The notes: generated by a model not told the origin, from the sequence alone. Shown: positions 1 to 37,388, counted from the stretch's first letter. The stretch: DNA of 64,000 nt from Atopobium sp. (GCA_015259155.1 JABZGY010000002.1:6697-70696), one strand, 5' to 3'. Translations and numbers: made by a program.

Positions 1-59
1 ATAGTGTCAGGCGGAACTTGCGTGCTCAGGTTTGTAGATACGTCAATCGTTCGTTCCAT
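1..59 (-). CDS. 5' end of an unknown gene running off the window (MERTIDVSTNLSTQVPPDT...)
   Basis: ATG at 59-57 on the minus strand, preceded by an AAAGGAA RBS; frame open to the window edge. Confidence 0.6.
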   Translation of the reverse strand, partial: MERTIDVSTNLSTQVPPDT

Positions 60-156
60 AGTATGTTCCTTTCAGAGATGTTAGAGAAAAAATCAGCCGT
101 TTGAACAGGTAATTTATTTCTCATCGTTGAATAATCATAGGTTCAAAAAAGATTTT

Positions 157-180
157 GAGTGTCCAGTGTAATGGACACTC
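157..180. promoter_or_regulatory. Palindromic operator GAGTGTCCA-gtgtaa-TGGACACTC (putative WYL-regulator site 1)
   Basis: 9-6-9 perfect inverted repeat; same core at 24760-24777 and 26222-26239; minus-strand TATGAT (139-134) lies 20 bp from the core. Confidence 0.6.
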
Positions 181-18242: not shown

Positions 18243-21200
18243 TTACTTATTCTTACGACGCTTAGTAATGCCAAGTGAAGTCATTACAGCGGTCATACCA
18301 GCGAGAAGTGCAGCAAGAGGTGCTGCAGCAGAAGCATCTCCGGTGTATGGAGTCTTCTGCTTCTTTTTCTTAGATGGCTTAGTTGGAGTAGAAGGAGTCT
18401 CTGGAGTCTCATCTTCTGCAACAGTAATGGTTAGCTGGATTGTGTCGTTATCAGTTGCAACGGCGTCCTTACCATCTGGCCACTGAACACCATTCCAGGT
18501 GAACGAGAAGACCTTGCGGTTGCCAGCTGCGGAATCAGCAATAGCGCTGAAGGAGCCGGTAACGGTGCCGACAGCGGTGAGCTGGGTGCCTGCAGCAACA
18601 TTGGAGTCAATGGTGACGCCAGGAATGGTGAGCTTCATCCAGCCATCGTTTGCACTTGCCTCATCAACAATGCGCTCGAGGTCAGAGTACGTTCTAATGG
18701 AGGAAGGATCGCTGAGTTCAAAGGTGACGGTAACCGTACGACCGTTGACCTGAACATCGCTGACCTTAAAGCCGCTGCCAAAGTTGGAAGCCTGGATGGT
18801 GTTGGCATCAAGGTTGCTTGGAAGTGTCATTCCCTCAGGAACAGTCAGAGTTGCTGTGAACTTGAACTTCAGGTTGCTCAGCGTAATGGTGTCATGGTTG
18901 GTATTAGGGTAGGCGCGCTCAATGTTGTTCATCTGCTCCTGGATAGAGGAAGCAAGAATTGAACCGGTGAGGTTAAAGGTAGAACCTGCCTTCATAGTGA
19001 TGACCTGGTCATGCTCGGTATTCTCGTCAGCAAGCATATCTGCAGGAAGGTTCATCTCAATTGGGTTGTTCACAATCAGAGTCTGCTGAATGCCGGTACC
19101 ACGAGGGTCTCTGCTCGCAGCAATCTGAACGCCGTTCCAAGAAAGTTCGAACTTCTTGGTGACGTTGGTGACGGTGTTCTTTGCAAAAGACTCAAAGGTG
19201 CCAGTAAGAGTACCTGTAGCGGTGAGCTCCTGACCATTGGTAACCTGAGTTGGGTCAAGTGTGAGACCATCAACAGTTACAGTAAGAGGTCTTGCAATCT
19301 CTGTGGTAGCTGCGTCGTCTTTGCCAACTGTCTCGACAGCGTCTTTGAGCTGCTTGTAGTTGGTGTAAGTGCCCTTAAGCTTCAGGGTAACGGTAACTTC
19401 CTGACCGTTGACGGAAACGTTTGTAACCTCAAAGAGATCACCAAGGCCAGAGGTAGTTACTGTTGGATTAGCTGGGACAACAACGCCAGCAGGAAGCGTG
19501 AGCTTTGCAGTAAAGGTAGAAGTTGTGCCAGAAAGCGTAATCTTGGTTAGGTCGTCGAGGCCGCCAGCAATGCCATTCTCAAAAGCGCTCATCTGATTAA
19601 TGACGGAAGTAGCGTCAATAGCACCAGTAAGGCTAAAGCTCTTATCGTTAGAAACTTCCTTGATCTGAGTGGTGTTGCTCTGAGAGTCACTCCACATATC
19701 AGCAGGAAGATCGCTAGTAAGCTCTACTCTCTGGATGGAAGGATCTTCCTTCCACTTGAGGTAATAGGTGACATCGTTGGTAAGCGTTGCTCCACCGTTG
19801 ATGGTTGCAGGGGAGTTACCTGCAGCGTCGGTGAACCAGTAGTGGTAGTTGTGACCAATAACAATGCCAAAGAAGGTCATTGGATCATCCGCGTTGTCCA
19901 GAATGTGGTTCTCAAAAGTTGCAATATTTGTGTAGGCAGTATTGGTGTTAGAGCTGGTAGGACTTGCAATTCCAGCAGTTGTAGTGCTAAGGGTGTTGCC
20001 GCTGAGGTTTTGAAGCAGTGCATTGATATTGGTCTGCTCAGCAACAGTTGGGTGAGTCTTGATAGTTGCAACTTCTCCGCCGTTTGCATCGGTGGTGATG
20101 TCAAAGACATTTGGATTCTGCTTAAAGACGCTGTTTGCCGAGAAAGTACCACCATTTGCCGAGAAGGACACGGTAAGGTGCTGCTCTTCCCACTCTGCAT
20201 ACAGATCAACAGTATCAGTACCTGCAGGAACAGCAAGGCTGGAATTAGCCGCTACCTCATCGCCAGCGCCGTTTGCCTGAGTGGTCCAGCGCTTGAAGGT
20301 TTTACCTGCAATGTTGAAGTTGCTGTCGCGATTGTTAACGTCAGTGTTAGAAAGAACGTTAACGGTGCGACCAGCGTTTGTAGCAACGCGTTCAATAACG
20401 GTAACGCCGTTGCCGTTGTGATACCTGACATAGAGCCAAGCAGTGTTGGCCTTCCAATGTGGATAGACTGTCATGTCAGAGGTGACCTGGGTATCAGCGG
20501 TGAACTGGTGCTCGGTACCAGCAGCGTCGGTGTAGTACCAGCCGTCAAACTCCTGACCACTTGCATAAGGATCTGCAGGTAGGGTAGTGGAGCCTTCTGC
20601 TACAGAAGAAGCAGTTGCAAGAGAGTTACCGCGCATAGCAAGAGCAGTCTTGTTAGCAGTAGTGCCGTCAGCAAATGTTGGGTTGACGCCGGTAACACCT
20701 GGAGTATTGAGGTCAAAAGTAACGGTTGCAGCAGGTGCCCAAACGTGCTTCTGGCCATCGCTTGAAGCGTTAGCAACTGGGTAGGTATAGGTTGCTCCGT
20801 TAGCATTAATGAGGCTCAGAGAGTTAGTTGATGGGTCAGCAAGGGTAAAGAGCGAGAGAACCTCATTGCCGTTAGCTGCACCGTTTGTAGGGATAGTGCT
20901 ACCAAAGCCACTGTTGTAACTTGGTGCGTATTTGAGCAAGTAAGAGCCGCCAACAACGTTGTAGTTCTGACGAGTCTGGCCAGCACCGTTATCAGAGTTC
21001 TTGGTAGCAGGGGTTTCTACCAGGCTGTTTCCGGTGAATTGGATGGAACCGTTGGTCTGGGCTCCAAAGAGGGCGCCAGAGTTACGACCATCTCCCTTAA
21101 TCGTGGAATTGTTAATGATGACGTCACCAGTGTTGACGTTAAGGCCGCCAGTTCCACCGTTAGTGAAGTTAAGGGTTGAGTTAGTAACGTTTACTGTTCC

Positions 21201-22271
21201 ACCAGCTACACCAACAGAAATGCCAGAAGTTGAGCCAGCATTTGCGTTGATGGTGGAGTTAACAATATTGGAAGTTCCCTGGATGGTCATGCCCGTCTGG
21301 CCCCAGAAAGATGGGTTAATGGTTAGGGTGGAGTCATTCATGTTGAGCTGGTTGACGTAGAAAGTCTGACCAAAGCCTTCAACGGCAAGGTCTGTGTTCC
21401 TAAGGTTGAGGTTGCGAGCGTCATTCCAGGTACGAGCCTGTGAAGTTACTTTGATAGTAGCGTTTTCAAAGGTGACACCAGACTCAAAGAAGTTTGTATT
21501 GCTCTTATCGTCTGCGGTGATGGTAACGCTGCTCTTGTTGGTGCTGCCGCTAACGGTTCCGCCAAGAGAAATACCGCGCGAGCCGCTTGCACCTGCGTTG
21601 TTCCTGAAGACATAAGTACCATCAGTGATGGTAGACCCATCCTGTGCGGTTAGTGCTGTCTTGAAGCCAGACATGGTAAGAGTGCCCGTGCCGGTCAGCG
21701 TTGAGCCAGGTGATAGAACCAGACCGTCAATGCTGTTTCCAGTGCCAGTAAGCGTTGCGCCCTCAGATTCAATCTTGAGTGTAAGACCAGAAGGAATGGT
21801 AACCGTAGAGGTCAGATTGAGGTTGCCTTTAAGATGAATGGTGTAGATTGAAGAAGTTTCTCCCCACAGCTCCAGTGCTTTCTCGAGAGATTTAACAGGA
21901 TCGGAGCTGGAGCCCTCGTTAGTATCGCTACCGTTGGTTCCGTCTACCCAGAGCTCAGTTGAGATGTAAGAAAGGCTTCTTGTAACACGGCGAGAAGATC
22001 TATCTGCAGGAGCAGTAGTCTGCTCAGAAGTCTGCTGGTTGGAAGTAGACTCTGCGGTAGTGGTAGCCTCAGTAGAGCTCTCTGCAGTTGCCTCCGAAGT
22101 TGAGGCAGTTGCATCACTTGTTTGAGCTGCTGCAACTTCTTGCGTCTGAGTTACTTCTTGAGTGCTAGCAATTTCTGCTAACGCTGAAGAAGGGACCAAA
22201 GAGAGCGCGAGTACCAAAGACATAGCTGTCTTTGCCCCTTTGCTTGCAAAGTTCTTGTTTTTTCTTTCCAT
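18243..22271 (-). CDS. Large cell-wall surface protein: beta-helix-like N-region, InlB B-repeat-like domains, TPYTG sorting signal
   Basis: Signal peptide; WVDGTNGSDTNEGS..P.KSL motif; F.GWY...FTADTQVTSDMTVYPHW repeats; two internal LPADM repeats; TPYTG-TM-KRRKNK; ATG 22271. Confidence 0.85.
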   Translation of the reverse strand: MERKNKNFASKGAKTAMSLVLALSLVPSSALAEIASTQEVTQTQEVAAAQTSDATASTSEATAESSTEATTTAESTSNQQTSEQTTAPADRSSRRVTRSLSYISTELWVDGTNGSDTNEGSSSDPVKSLEKALELWGETSSIYTIHLKGNLNLTSTVTIPSGLTLKIESEGATLTGTGNSIDGLVLSPGSTLTGTGTLTMSGFKTALTAQDGSTITDGTYVFRNNAGASGSRGISLGGTVSGSTNKSSVTITADDKSNTNFFESGVTFENATIKVTSQARTWNDARNLNLRNTDLAVEGFGQTFYVNQLNMNDSTLTINPSFWGQTGMTIQGTSNIVNSTINANAGSTSGISVGVAGGTVNVTNSTLNFTNGGTGGLNVNTGDVIINNSTIKGDGRNSGALFGAQTNGSIQFTGNSLVETPATKNSDNGAGQTRQNYNVVGGSYLLKYAPSYNSGFGSTIPTNGAANGNEVLSLFTLADPSTNSLSLINANGATYTYPVANASSDGQKHVWAPAATVTFDLNTPGVTGVNPTFADGTTANKTALAMRGNSLATASSVAEGSTTLPADPYASGQEFDGWYYTDAAGTEHQFTADTQVTSDMTVYPHWKANTAWLYVRYHNGNGVTVIERVATNAGRTVNVLSNTDVNNRDSNFNIAGKTFKRWTTQANGAGDEVAANSSLAVPAGTDTVDLYAEWEEQHLTVSFSANGGTFSANSVFKQNPNVFDITTDANGGEVATIKTHPTVAEQTNINALLQNLSGNTLSTTTAGIASPTSSNTNTAYTNIATFENHILDNADDPMTFFGIVIGHNYHYWFTDAAGNSPATINGGATLTNDVTYYLKWKEDPSIQRVELTSDLPADMWSDSQSNTTQIKEVSNDKSFSLTGAIDATSVINQMSAFENGIAGGLDDLTKITLSGTTSTFTAKLTLPAGVVVPANPTVTTSGLGDLFEVTNVSVNGQEVTVTLKLKGTYTNYKQLKDAVETVGKDDAATTEIARPLTVTVDGLTLDPTQVTNGQELTATGTLTGTFESFAKNTVTNVTKKFELSWNGVQIAASRDPRGTGIQQTLIVNNPIEMNLPADMLADENTEHDQVITMKAGSTFNLTGSILASSIQEQMNNIERAYPNTNHDTITLSNLKFKFTATLTVPEGMTLPSNLDANTIQASNFGSGFKVSDVQVNGRTVTVTFELSDPSSIRTYSDLERIVDEASANDGWMKLTIPGVTIDSNVAAGTQLTAVGTVTGSFSAIADSAAGNRKVFSFTWNGVQWPDGKDAVATDNDTIQLTITVAEDETPETPSTPTKPSKKKKQKTPYTGDASAAAPLAALLAGMTAVMTSLGITKRRKNK

Positions 22272-22806
22272 ACCTACCCCTAACAAATAGTGAATACCCC
22301 AACAAAATTTGCAATTAAAGCTTGTGCCAAAAGTGATAAATCACGATAAGCACGATGGAGACAAATGACACATATTCAGAGCATTTTTTGTATAGATAAT
22401 TATCTATTATTTTGGTAAAAATTGTTAGCTCAACCAGCGATTTTTATAGTTTGAACACATTTCAAAAAACGTCTTGAACTCATGTTATATAAATAATTTA
22501 ATCAAAATATTTGGTACGTTGAAAAATAGCATTTAAATTGCTCTATTTTTAACGATTTTCTCGACATTTGTCATAAACGTGCAACGGATAAAAATTGTAA
22601 TAGAAATGTATTAAATTTTAAGACAAATGTGAGTTATGCGGAAACTGAATAGTGGAAGCTGGATAGTTAACAATTTCATGAAATTTGAGCTTCAAAATTC
22701 TGAAGCAAGAGGGACTGTGTACACTAAGAAAAAGGCAGTTAAGAGGATGCACAATCTGCGCAAATAATGCGTGAGAGATACGTTTGAATGTGTTGAGCGG
22801 GGAGTT

Positions 22807-23552: not shown

Positions 23553-24680
23553 ATGGCAATCAAAAATGATAAAACTACTCCACATCGCTTTGATGTTGTT
23601 GGTAGCTTTCTTCGTCCAGAGAAACTTAAGCAGGCTCGTATTCAGTTTGAAAAAGGTCAGATTGATTCGCATGAGCTCAAACAAGTAGAGGACAAAGCTA
23701 TTACAGAGCTTATCCAAAAGGAGAAACAGGCAGGCCTTAAAGTCATCACTGACGGTGAGTTTAGGCGTGCAACCTGGCACCTTGATTTTATGTGGGCGTT
23801 TGAAGGTATTGGCCATGCGCCAACTAATACTGGACTTCCTTTCCATGATGAGACTGCAGAGATTGACGACACCTTCCTCGTAGGAAAAGTGGAGCTCACC
23901 AAAGAGCATCCCTTTATAGAGCACTTCCGCTTTGTTCAGCAGTTTGAGGACGAGACAACCGTTGCTAAGCTTACTATTCCTGCACCTGCACAGTTTATTG
24001 AGCAGTTCATTATGCCTATGAACCGCGAGCAGACTAACAAGTACTATGCCAACGACCAGGACCTTCTTGAAGATATTGTTGCTGGCTACGGTGCGTTTAT
24101 TAAGCAGGTATATGCTGCAGGCTGTCGTAATCTTCAGCTTGATGACTGCTCATGGGGCGTGCTGGTTGACCCACGTGCAGAGCTTTTCTTTGGTGCTAAC
24201 CAGGAAGGTCTTAAGAAGATTAAGGCACTACTCTTGGAGATTAATAACCGCGTTCTTGATGCTGCTCCAGCTGACTTGACTATTAACACGCACGTTTGTC
24301 GTGGCAACTTCCATAGTACCTGGGCTTGCGAGGGCGGCTATGACGATGTGGCCGATGCTCTTCTTGCTCAAGAGCACGTAAACGCTTTCTTCTTAGAATT
24401 TGATGATCATCGCTCCGGTGGCTTTGAGCCCCTGGTTTCTGTTCCAGCTGGTAAAAAGGTTGTGCTTGGTCTGATCACCACCAAGCACGCCCAGCTGGAA
24501 GAGAAAGCCAAGGTTATTGAGCGTATTCATGAGGCGGCTCAGTACGTACCTCTGGAGAATCTCTGCCTTTCTCCCCAGTGCGGCTTTGCAAGCTGCGAGA
24601 TTGGTAACAAGCTTACTGAAGATGAGCAGTGGGCAAAGATTGCGCTTGTGAAAGAAATTGCCGAAGAGGTTTGGGGCTAA
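23553..24680 (+). CDS. Cobalamin-independent methionine synthase II-family protein (catalytic half only, YxjH-like)
   Basis: DVVGSFLRP, ITDGEFRR..WH.DF, HVCRGN, FLEFD, LSPQCGFAS Zn-binding motifs. Confidence 0.9.
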   Translation: MAIKNDKTTPHRFDVVGSFLRPEKLKQARIQFEKGQIDSHELKQVEDKAITELIQKEKQAGLKVITDGEFRRATWHLDFMWAFEGIGHAPTNTGLPFHDETAEIDDTFLVGKVELTKEHPFIEHFRFVQQFEDETTVAKLTIPAPAQFIEQFIMPMNREQTNKYYANDQDLLEDIVAGYGAFIKQVYAAGCRNLQLDDCSWGVLVDPRAELFFGANQEGLKKIKALLLEINNRVLDAAPADLTINTHVCRGNFHSTWACEGGYDDVADALLAQEHVNAFFLEFDDHRSGGFEPLVSVPAGKKVVLGLITTKHAQLEEKAKVIERIHEAAQYVPLENLCLSPQCGFASCEIGNKLTEDEQWAKIALVKEIAEEVWG

Positions 24681-24754
24681 ATATCAGTTGGTAACGGTTC
24701 GTCTGCGACTTACATGCCGTTTACCGAAGAGTTTCTGACCATACGTTCTTCTCG

Positions 24755-24787
24755 ACTCCTGTCCACTAAAATGGACAGGAGTTTTTT
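24755..24787. promoter_or_regulatory. Palindrome ACTCCTGTCCA-ctaaaa-TGGACAGGAGT (putative WYL site 2; may double as terminator)
   Basis: 11-6-11 inverted repeat followed by a T-run; TGGACA-18 bp-TAGACT (24796-24801) resembles a sigma-A promoter for the WYL gene. Confidence 0.55.
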
Positions 24788-24812
24788 ATTGGAGCTAGAC
24801 TTCGGAGGCAGT

Positions 24813-25805
24813 ATGCCAAGCGAGAAGACCCGCTGCTTGCACCTCGTAAAAATTTTCGAGGAAGAAACTGATGACGATCATGGTCTGAGCACGCCTCAGC
24901 TTATTGAAAAGCTGGCAGAGCGCGGGCTAAGCGTGGAACGTAAAACACTTTACGATGACATCAAATCGCTGCAGAATTTTGGTTACGACATCCAGTCTTA
25001 TCAGCGTCATCCTGTTGAATACGGCCTGGCTACCAGGAAGTTTCAGGCTGAGGAGCTCATGTTGATGGCAGATGCTGTGCAGTCGTCAAAGTTTTTGACA
25101 GAGCGCAAGGCAAATAACCTGGTGAGTCTTATCGGTGAGCTGGGTGGAAAGTCTACCTCTGACACGCTGAAGAAGCGCATCCATGTTGAGGGTCGTATTA
25201 AGTCGCAAAATGAGTCTGTGTTTTATGCACTCAATGCTATTCAGACAGCACTCTTGCAGAAGAAAAAGGTCTCGTTTAAGTATCGCAAGAAGGGCTTTAA
25301 AGATAAGGTTATTGAAGAGCTTCCTGTAAGAGAAGAAACGCCTGTTCAACTCACGTATATTGACGATTTTTACTATCTTATTGTGTGGAACGATAAGCAT
25401 CAAAACTTTGTCAATTATCGCGTGGACCGCATGTTTAGACTTGAGGTCTCTGATGCTGATGCCACGGTTAACGAGCAAATCAAGCAGTTTGATATAGACA
25501 AGTATCAAGAGCGTGTCTTTGGCATGTACTCGGGCGAGGTTGTTGAGGTCACGCTTCGCGTCAATGAGCGCGTGATGTGCTCGGTGTACGACCGCTTTGG
25601 CAAGAACATTATTTTGAACAATCCTAGTTCTGATGGAAGTACAGCTGACGTGCATGTTTCTGTAATGGAAGCACCAACGTTTTACGGCTGGCTTGCAACC
25701 TTTGGAACAGATATAGAGTTAGTAGCTCCAAAGAAGACCAGACAGAAATACCAAGAGTATCTGAGCGGGATTCTTCAGAGCTACCAATCACAGAAAGATG
25801 ATTAG
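24813..25805 (+). CDS. WYL-domain transcriptional regulator (wHTH-WYL-WCX, YafY/PafB-like)
   Basis: N-terminal HTH (VERKTLYDDIKSL); WYL core (PVQLTYIDDFYYLIV...NYRVDRM); WCX-like C-terminus; GGAGG RBS before ATG 24813. Confidence 0.9.
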   Translation: MPSEKTRCLHLVKIFEEETDDDHGLSTPQLIEKLAERGLSVERKTLYDDIKSLQNFGYDIQSYQRHPVEYGLATRKFQAEELMLMADAVQSSKFLTERKANNLVSLIGELGGKSTSDTLKKRIHVEGRIKSQNESVFYALNAIQTALLQKKKVSFKYRKKGFKDKVIEELPVREETPVQLTYIDDFYYLIVWNDKHQNFVNYRVDRMFRLEVSDADATVNEQIKQFDIDKYQERVFGMYSGEVVEVTLRVNERVMCSVYDRFGKNIILNNPSSDGSTADVHVSVMEAPTFYGWLATFGTDIELVAPKKTRQKYQEYLSGILQSYQSQKDD

Positions 25806-25843
25806 CTAAACCAAATCAAAACAAGTAGTCTTTCTCGCGCCAA

Positions 25844-26167
25844 TTAACGAGCATCAATGACGTAAAGGCCTGCTTTAACTAGAAGATGACCATGGTGATC
25901 ACTGAGCTGTGTAATTTTGCAGGTAATAATGTTTTGATGTCCGTAGAAGAGCAGAGTACTCCAGAGAGAATTGCTTTCTCTAGGAACAAAGCCCAGCTTG
26001 TGGTCATTAGAGTACAGAGCAAGAGCCTCTGGGTCGTAAGGGTTATCACGTTCAGAAACAATGGTTAGATCTGAGCCAAGTTTGAGCTGGTCAAAGACAA
26101 GAGGAGCGTCGTAGTAGGGAAGACCGGAAATAACAAAGGAATCAACGAGTTTTGTAGGACTGTACAT
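25844..26167 (-). CDS. Stand-alone HIRAN-domain protein
   Basis: ISGLPYYD, ERDNPYDPEALALY, KLGFVPR motifs typical of HIRAN; AAGGAGG RBS. Confidence 0.85.
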   Translation of the reverse strand: MYSPTKLVDSFVISGLPYYDAPLVFDQLKLGSDLTIVSERDNPYDPEALALYSNDHKLGFVPRESNSLWSTLLFYGHQNIITCKITQLSDHHGHLLVKAGLYVIDAR

Positions 26168-26221
26168 AAGAGCCTCCTTAGAAGATGTTGAGAATAGAAT
26201 ATGGATTTGTTAAAGAATGAG

Positions 26222-26239
26222 TGTCCAACAGATTGGACA
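26222..26239. promoter_or_regulatory. Palindrome TGTCCA-acagat-TGGACA (putative WYL site 3)
   Basis: Between divergent HIRAN and GNAT genes; minus-strand TATTCT (26201-26196) lies 20 bp from the core. Confidence 0.6.
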
Positions 26240-37159: not shown

Positions 37160-37388
37160 GAAATTTACGAGGAAAGAAAAATGGTTAGATTTGCAGACAA
37201 ATGTCCAAAAGATTGAACATGAAATTTAATGTGTCATTTATGTCGCATTTTAAGCAAATTATTTTCCTTTGGCTTATTTACCATAGGATTTGTGAAACAA
37301 AAATAATTTTTCTATAGCAAATTATGTGAATATGGCTAGAATTTATTTTGTTTCCTAATGGTTTGTGCTCGTTAAAAAAGGAGAGAGC

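Follow-up and report, generated by a model that had tools for sequence, protein, structure and literature searches.

A WYL regulator encoded beside a stand-alone HIRAN gene in Atopobium sp. and its putative operator, TGTCC-N8-GGACA, at two distances from the -10 box in Coriobacteriia and Clostridia

Introduction

In a 64,000-nucleotide stretch of an Atopobium sp. genome (hereafter the window), a gene for a WYL regulator converges on a stand-alone HIRAN gene, and the same palindrome, TGTCCA-N6-TGGACA, lies upstream of both. This raises the question of whether the palindrome is the operator of the regulator, which genes it controls and which signal it transmits. The first-pass annotation had proposed a LexA-independent damage or anti-phage response, in which the WYL protein activates HIRAN and distant targets and regulates itself. 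SOS-independent WYL activators of damage responses are already known from Caulobacter, Acinetobacter and mycobacteria. What is at stake here is a readable operator and a target list for a large WYL subfamily of Coriobacteriia and Clostridia, which opens to testing the function of stand-alone HIRAN proteins in bacteria, a LexA-free induction of recA, CRISPR-Cas, restriction and CBASS genes in gut anaerobes, and how the docking of an activator may shift by one helical turn while its operator stays unchanged.

Results

The palindrome is overrepresented and phased to predicted -10 boxes

The three palindrome positions and the convergent gene pair were reproduced by a scan of the window and by Pfam searches, with the following features:

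24813..25805, plus strand: regulator of 330 aa with wHTH, helical linker, WYL and WCX (Pfam WYL 1.5e-13, WCX 2.3e-10)
25844..26167, minus strand: stand-alone HIRAN protein of 107 aa (Pfam HIRAN 1.1e-10)
26222..26239, read on the minus strand: putative operator copy before HIRAN, perfect palindrome
26196..26201, minus strand: predicted -10 box TATTCT of the HIRAN promoter, starting exactly 20 bp after the operator
160..177, read on the minus strand: putative operator copy before the SIMPL/DUF541 gene, perfect palindrome
134..139, minus strand: predicted -10 box TATGAT of the SIMPL/DUF541 promoter, starting exactly 20 bp after the operator
1..59, minus strand, running past the window as L001:6066-6755: 5' end of a 229-aa SIMPL/DUF541 gene (PF04402, 1.3e-12)

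The third perfect copy in the window (24760-24777) precedes the wyl gene, which is a single gene between a MetE-like gene and the HIRAN gene. The whole assembly used for the counts (G000, 1.26 Mb, 48.6% GC, with the window at G000:C22:6697-70696) contains four perfect copies with a half-site spacer of 6, compared to 0.073 expected, while none of the 15 other spacers between 0 and 15 gave more than 1 copy. The fourth copy, at G000:C3:2757, is followed by TAnnnT 20 bp downstream and by a gene for a 284-aa protein, and a TAnnnT box thus begins exactly 20 bp downstream at three of the four copies (HIRAN, SIMPL and 284-aa genes). This distance had been described before for the HIRAN and 160-177 sites together with the CTCA at the start of both gaps on the minus strand, and both details proved correct. 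Across all perfect cores in this genome, TAnnnT occurred at 20 bp in 3 of 10 strand-readings and at most once at any other gap between 10 and 30 bp.

Relaxing the core to one or two mismatches revealed no further targets in this genome (TAnnnT at 20 bp in 1 of 55 and 2 of 812 strand-readings, respectively, without a peak), and a fifth TGTCC-N8-GGACA at C14:13419 lacks TAnnnT at 20 bp. The same applies on both strands to a one-mismatch copy at 37202-37219, which is probably outside the regulon; its surroundings are AT-rich and intergenic, and the ORF downstream is dehydrogenase-like. Rfam had no match between 24600 and 26400.

Within the genus, the WYL protein is 97-100% identical in 31 of 36 genomes and the perfect 18-mer occurs in 34 of 36, with two to seven copies each, whereas the near-complete genomes G028 and G227 have neither the protein nor the pattern. 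The HIRAN promoter gap is 20 bp throughout, despite three different gap sequences. Other strains of the genus have more targets: one is a DUF5067 protein whose N-terminus looks like a signal sequence, the other a small Cys-rich ORF that precedes an HTH-Fic gene. The palindrome described at the outset is confirmed, but the putative conserved operator core is TGTCC-N8-GGACA.

The regulator resembles DriD

The WYL protein has the class A layout (HTH-WYL-WCX, with an N-terminal wHTH followed by WYL and WCX), and its AlphaFold2 model reached a pLDDT of 93 with an 82-row alignment. The top Foldseek match of the model was DriD (8tp8, E 2.3e-15, 20% identity over the full length), followed by PafBC, CapW and BrxR, the latter two at E 2e-7 to 3e-8. 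NCBIfam has no family for either the WYL or the HIRAN protein, and the named homologues are from Coriobacteriia.

Placing the published DriD numbering (PMC9186387) on a phmmer alignment by our own mapping, we found that DriD Y168, R178, Y192, W206, R207 and Y240 align to Y157, R173, Y188, Y202, R203 and Y239, whereas K202 and R204 align to N198 and V200 and are not conserved. Thus, in the DriD set described for the ssDNA pocket (Y168, R178, Y192, K202, R204, W206, Y240), five positions are kept or similar and two are not.

The copy before the wyl gene is also a predicted terminator

The sequence between the MetE-like gene and wyl has the following features:

23553-24680, upstream of wyl: MetE-like gene (Meth_synt_2)
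24754..24790, plus strand: 12-bp stem-loop and T-run around the operator (-20.3 kcal/mol), predicted intrinsic terminator
24760..24777, both strands: off-register operator copy before the wyl gene, right half resembling a -35 hexamer
24796..24801, plus strand: predicted -10 box TAGACT of the wyl gene, 18 bp after the operator in this genome

The hairpin lies 74 bp downstream of the MetE-like stop codon. The 24760 copy is best described as a predicted terminator with an off-register operator inside; the copy probably doubles as the terminator of the MetE-like gene and may give weak or negative feedback. The half-site had been read as -35-like with an 18-bp spacer to TAGACT, which is correct for this genome, but among 31 genomes of the genus (two duplicate loci removed) the gap was 16 bp in 2, 17 in 5, 18 in 19, 19 in 3 and 20 in 2, its length varying through the T-run. 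Self-regulation as such gains support from ten Coriobacteriales genomes with the canonical geometry before the wyl gene itself, although the local copy is off-register and also forms the terminator.

The terminator raises the possibility that all copies are hairpins or chance palindromes without a bound protein. Besides the stem and T-run behind the MetE-like gene, a HIRAN site in G135 is likewise an extended hairpin with a T-run. However, the spacer of the core is fixed at 8, the distance to the -10 box is fixed, sites lie between divergent genes, the HIRAN copy of the window folds only weakly (-7.7 kcal/mol) and the copies co-occur with one regulator family (see below). From this we conclude that a hairpin or chance origin, which we find barely credible for the sites as a whole, is disfavoured for every copy except 24760.

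A second question is whether the protein bound there would activate or repress. It could repress in the manner of BrxR and CapW until ssDNA releases it, the spacing then reflecting no more than an overlap with the -35 region. BrxR and CapW are indeed among the structural matches, the right half-site overlaps a -35-like hexamer at the wyl gene, and several of the closest orthologues outside the genus (L035, L038, L041, L042, L043, L046, L049, L056) have a TGT(A/C)CA half-site starting 2 bp after the -10-like box of wyl, a position typical of autorepression. At the target promoters, however, there is no conserved -35 hexamer and the gap length is kept while its sequence changes, phasing to one base would be needless for repression, and the match to DriD is far better than those to CapW and BrxR, which makes repression improbable as the general mode of action. 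If the operator does belong to this WYL protein, activation is likely.

Pattern and regulator co-occur in Coriobacteriales

We scanned 301 Coriobacteriales genomes, 131 of which encode the WYL subfamily at E <= 1e-40, for TGTCC-N8-GGACA-N20-TAnnnT. The pattern was present in 59 genomes, compared to 3 matches of the reversed control, and it occurred in 57 of the 131 WYL-positive but only 2 of the 170 WYL-negative genomes; outside the own genus, the respective numbers were 38 of 111 and 1 of 167. Since these genomes are kin, the Fisher p-values overstate the co-occurrence. In one exception, G304, the contig breaks across the locus, and the other, G180, has a family member according to the profile (E 1e-55). 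The co-occurrence of the motif with this WYL subfamily in relatives is thus supported, and both exceptions are explained. The perfect pattern is absent in 74 of the 131 WYL-positive genomes, the right half-site is degenerate at the most similar orthologues from other genera (51-58% identity), and in family f13 the pattern was found in none of 81 genomes and the protein in just 8.

Allowing up to one mismatch, 26 of 171 Coriobacteriales strand-readings had TAnnnT at 20 bp, 9 at 21 and 3 at 10. A pattern with a gap of 10 gave 23 matches in 22 of the 301 genomes, and 9 of the 10 in the own genus were palindromes already counted as 20-bp sites.

We examined flanks of at most about 2.5 kb (shorter where a contig ended) at 78 more distant WYL loci and found 17 HIRAN genes, 15 of which have a site, allowing up to 3 mismatches in the 10 core bases, with TAnnnT at 20 (11) or 21 bp (4) and none at 9-11 bp. 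The motif is thus kept upstream of most linked HIRAN genes, as would be expected from the original proposal, but it is degenerate in its right half in the nearest orthologues outside the genus. Two HIRAN genes with a site lie on other contigs than the WYL gene (L111, L138). Among the pattern sites examined for targets (30 automatic loci and 40 regions), HIRAN is the commonest first gene, in 12 genomes outside the near-identical genus set, followed by wyl in 10. Single cases included Cas9, HsdM, a SMODS cyclase, an RNA ligase, a DUF4011 helicase, a NERD nuclease and NrdD; targets were assigned by a first-downstream-ORF script, some of them 130-300 bp from the site.

A Clostridia branch uses the same core at another distance

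Among 1.84 billion representatives, a profile search recovered 838 proteins with E <= 1e-30. In the more distant group, 80 loci belong, by title, mostly to Oscillospiraceae, Lachnospiraceae and other Clostridia, and the recognition-helix pattern ERK-x-x-Y-x-DI is common to the Coriobacteriales and Clostridia clades. In the Clostridia loci the core is again found with a spacer of 8 (6 perfect copies, compared to no more than 2 for other spacers), but here the -10 box comes 10 bp after the core: with up to one mismatch, 28 of 219 strand-readings had TAnnnT at 10 bp and 2 at 20. In a draw from the class, the 10-bp pattern occurred in 19 of 39 WYL-positive versus 9 of 81 WYL-negative genomes, and the class-wide total of 44 matches compares with about 28 of the reversed control by hand count, which limits the signal to WYL-positive genomes. 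A pattern with a gap of 20 gave 12 matches in 12 of 121 Clostridia genomes, below its reversed control, and a de novo count of palindromes in the 300 bp upstream of 79 Clostridia wyl genes showed no enrichment. In the G330 family, 36 of 61 genomes have a refined pattern (6 control matches), namely 30 of the 42 with the WYL protein and 6 of the 19 without it. This comparison is partly circular because the pattern was derived from WYL-flanking sites.

Genes behind Clostridia sites include RecA (5 genomes), LigA, UvrD (2), RadC, AddB, exonucleases, Cas5 (2), Cas3, HsdM, a retron RT, IrrE-like peptidases, HIRAN (5) and wyl itself; other listed targets look like chance matches or unannotated genes. 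Among the best-scoring 30 of 60 Clostridia recA loci, 24 are from WYL-positive genomes, 7 of them with a site directly upstream of recA, and none of the 6 from WYL-negative genomes has one (p=0.29). Our patterns detected no SOS box within 260 bp of recA in these 30 loci. LexA is encoded in all five Clostridia genomes in which we looked for it. Seven IMG/VR viral contigs (L145-L151) encode relatives of the Clostridia-type regulator, one of them (L147) with a 10-bp-type site before the regulator gene.

With the first base of the -10 hexamer taken to be -12, the centre of the site falls near -31.5 in Clostridia and near -41.5 in Coriobacteriia, where the site ends near -33. In a midpoint-rooted tree of 79 Coriobacteriales and 39 of 78 Clostridia proteins the two groups separate (support of the Clostridia clade 0.83), except for one Coriobacteriales protein, from G078, which falls inside the Clostridia clade. 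Of the four sites in G078, two have a gap of 10 (TATACT, TAGACT), one of 20 and one of 22 bp. As a single case, G078 gives a hint that the phase goes with the protein. Among the residues that distinguish the clades are three charged positions of the helical bundle (83, 106 and 108), the region that is described as contacting the polymerase in DriD (PMC13004042), although ancestry alone could explain them. Taken together, we tentatively propose, as a reading slightly less likely than not, one widespread WYL subfamily of gut and oral anaerobes with one operator and two phases: Clostridia would use the 10-bp gap, the DriD position, for a recA damage/defence regulon without SOS boxes, and Coriobacteriia a gap of 20-21 bp through another polymerase contact, the phase going with the protein rather than the host and the stand-alone HIRAN protein being the conserved effector.

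One of the 10-bp sites of G078 lies before a small gene divergent from lexA, beside SOS boxes. In this region (L424:1022-1250, G078:C75), a small hydrophobic ORF is located between lexA and an nrdR-like gene, and its promoter contains both the 10-bp-type operator and the GAAC-type SOS boxes. The ORF resembles a division inhibitor, and dual control by WYL and LexA is possible.

The circuit would run beside the SOS response

The Atopobium genome encodes LexA, and its recA promoter carries a GAAC-N4-GTTC box and no WYL-type palindrome; a GAAC-type box is present at lexA, too. The idea of a response that replaces LexA/SOS therefore has to be given up for this genome, in which the WYL circuit would be parallel to SOS.

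With LexA and two more WYL genes in the genome, one might ask whether another regulator (an alternative sigma factor, an activator, LexA or the additional WYL pair) binds the site and wyl is merely a target. The additional genes overlap in tandem, encode WYL proteins of 337 and 330 aa and have an exonuclease-domain gene as neighbour (G000:C55:13812-15801, L463:4813-6802); a phmmer search of one of them against the PDB returned nothing, and the label PafBC-like therefore refers to their tandem layout only. The occurrence of wyl behind a site in ten genomes is also what would be seen for any regulon member. On the other hand, the pattern tracks the WYL subfamily, including the joint scarcity of both in family f13, the gap changes with the WYL clade, and lexA and recA carry GAAC-type boxes instead, all of which makes another regulator quite improbable. 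We consider it very likely, from co-occurrence and phasing, that TGTCC-N8-GGACA is an operator linked to this WYL subfamily.

Targets in this genome and the inducing signal

The predicted output in this genome is small and consists of the HIRAN, SIMPL and 284-aa proteins. The 107-aa protein is a HIRAN domain by sequence (PF08797, 41.7 bits over a cut-off of 24.7) and by its structural match to 3k2y. Eukaryotic HIRAN domains of the HLTF type bind 3' ssDNA ends. For bacterial HIRAN proteins, such binding is described as "predicted" (PMC11706625). A homologue of the SIMPL/DUF541 protein is found behind the same site geometry in G268 (L071), and the 284-aa protein had no Pfam or PADLOC family, just unnamed Atlas clusters. 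Apart from HIRAN, none of the three is a known repair or defence gene, and no defence operon adjoins the WYL gene within the window. Accordingly, a role in damage or defence rests on the relatives, in which repair and defence genes do lie behind the sites.

This leaves room for a WYL protein that activates via the site in response to another signal, perhaps RNA fragments or a cyclic nucleotide, with a regulon devoted to general stress in the genus. The SIMPL and 284-aa proteins, the DUF5067 lipoprotein and the Cys-rich ORF before HTH-Fic are not repair genes, the DriD residue R204 is not kept, and a c-di-GMP-sensing WYL factor has been described (PMC11880434). However, sites in the Clostridia sister clade precede recA, ligA, uvrD, radC and addB, a G078 site lies next to lexA and SOS boxes, and the R-x-D-R arginines needed by SiwR are kept. 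We therefore regard another signal as unlikely, though worth keeping in mind, and ssDNA or damage as the rather likely signal.

Taken together, TGTCC-N8-GGACA is probably the operator of the adjoining WYL protein, a predicted DriD/DdaA-like activator that is probably activated by ssDNA. In the proposed mechanism, a WYL homodimer would take up ssDNA, the presumed inducer, in its WYL-WCX pocket; the loaded protein would bind the palindrome directly, centred near -41.5, and would recruit RNA polymerase to promoters with a -10 but no -35 box. The Coriobacteriia branch would dock one helical turn further upstream than its Clostridia relatives, and the induced HIRAN protein may cap or protect 3' DNA ends. 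The early reading of the palindrome as an operator of this WYL subfamily before HIRAN and distant genes is thus supported by co-occurrence and by the fixed, activator-like distance to the -10 box.

Comparison with known WYL regulators

DriD of Caulobacter crescentus (PMC9186387, PMC13004042) shares the wHTH-helical bundle-WYL-WCX fold. Its sites are described as lying at one fixed distance from the -10 box, over the -35 position of promoters without a -35 element (PMC13004042), with a centre near -31 by our count from the didA promoter. The palindromic site at a fixed distance, the promoters without -35 and a site in the regulator's own promoter are common to DriD and the present protein, and several ssDNA-pocket residues align. 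In contrast, identity is only 20%, the targets differ, the DriD operator is ATACGAC-N7-GTCGTAT instead of TGTCC-N8-GGACA, and the DriD position is matched by the Clostridia branch only, the site in Coriobacteriia lying 10 bp further upstream.

DdaA of Moraxellaceae (Proteobacteria; PMC12392091) is described as a palindrome-using WYL activator of recA as well as RM and CRISPR-Cas genes. This mix of repair and defence targets is seen in the Clostridia branch, but not in the Atopobium genome with its SOS box at recA. The DdaA motif, CGWCA-N5-TGWCG, differs and is placed about 50 bp upstream of the start site, and the word HIRAN does not occur in the main text of that paper. Since operator and position differ, the WYL protein works like DriD and DdaA, as far as the predictions go, but belongs to neither.

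SiwR of Mycobacterium smegmatis (PMC10693628) is reported to be a homodimeric actinobacterial WYL activator with an imperfect 19-bp palindrome and a conserved GGA at -26, and the Clostridia geometry also puts a GGA near -26. Unlike the regulator studied here, SiwR controls one dinB-like operon from a site that spans -35 to -10, whereas the site in the window ends near -33. PafBC of mycobacteria (PMC6789036, PMC13004042) is a WYL-WCX activator of an SOS-parallel damage response in Actinobacteria; it is described as a heterodimer from tandem genes with a non-palindromic site at -26, as opposed to a single gene and a palindromic site here. BrxR and CapW share the wHTH-WYL-WCX fold and a link to defence genes, but are described as local repressors (PMC13004042), whereas the present sites are dispersed and phased to the -10 box and the structural match is weaker.

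A search of open-access running text yielded no paper on this WYL subfamily, on the motif or on WYL-HIRAN regulation; the SiwR operator is given in a figure. Systems of this kind are already known, and what is new is the 20-bp geometry of Coriobacteriia.

Additional observations

The window also encodes an unrelated 1347-aa secreted-type protein (18243-22286, minus strand) with repeats and, by eye, a C-terminal sortase-like anchor. In G007, identical operators at L103:1900 and 3648 (G007:C23) flank an inserted block of three ORFs, one of which resembles an AbiEi-type antitoxin by eye; the twin operators suggest a duplication at the insertion site. A conserved stretch of about 130 nt without a clear gene lies behind a perfect operator with TAGTCT at 20 bp (L140:584-720, plus strand), and the same element is present in L139 and L116, with the three genomes (G212, G323, G297) offering two different gene contexts. 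It folds into a long hairpin (-34.3 kcal/mol, z -3.5), has only chance-level Rfam matches, and is a candidate for a WYL-controlled small RNA or a small mobile unit. Finally, targets of 80-115 aa, without a Pfam match where scanned, recur in Clostridia (L245, L351, L360, L363, L370, L271, L344) and Coriobacteriales (L121, L123, L126); several of those in Clostridia share a VIDL/VVDL-x-x-YR stretch, and these small proteins are candidates for damage-induced division inhibitors.
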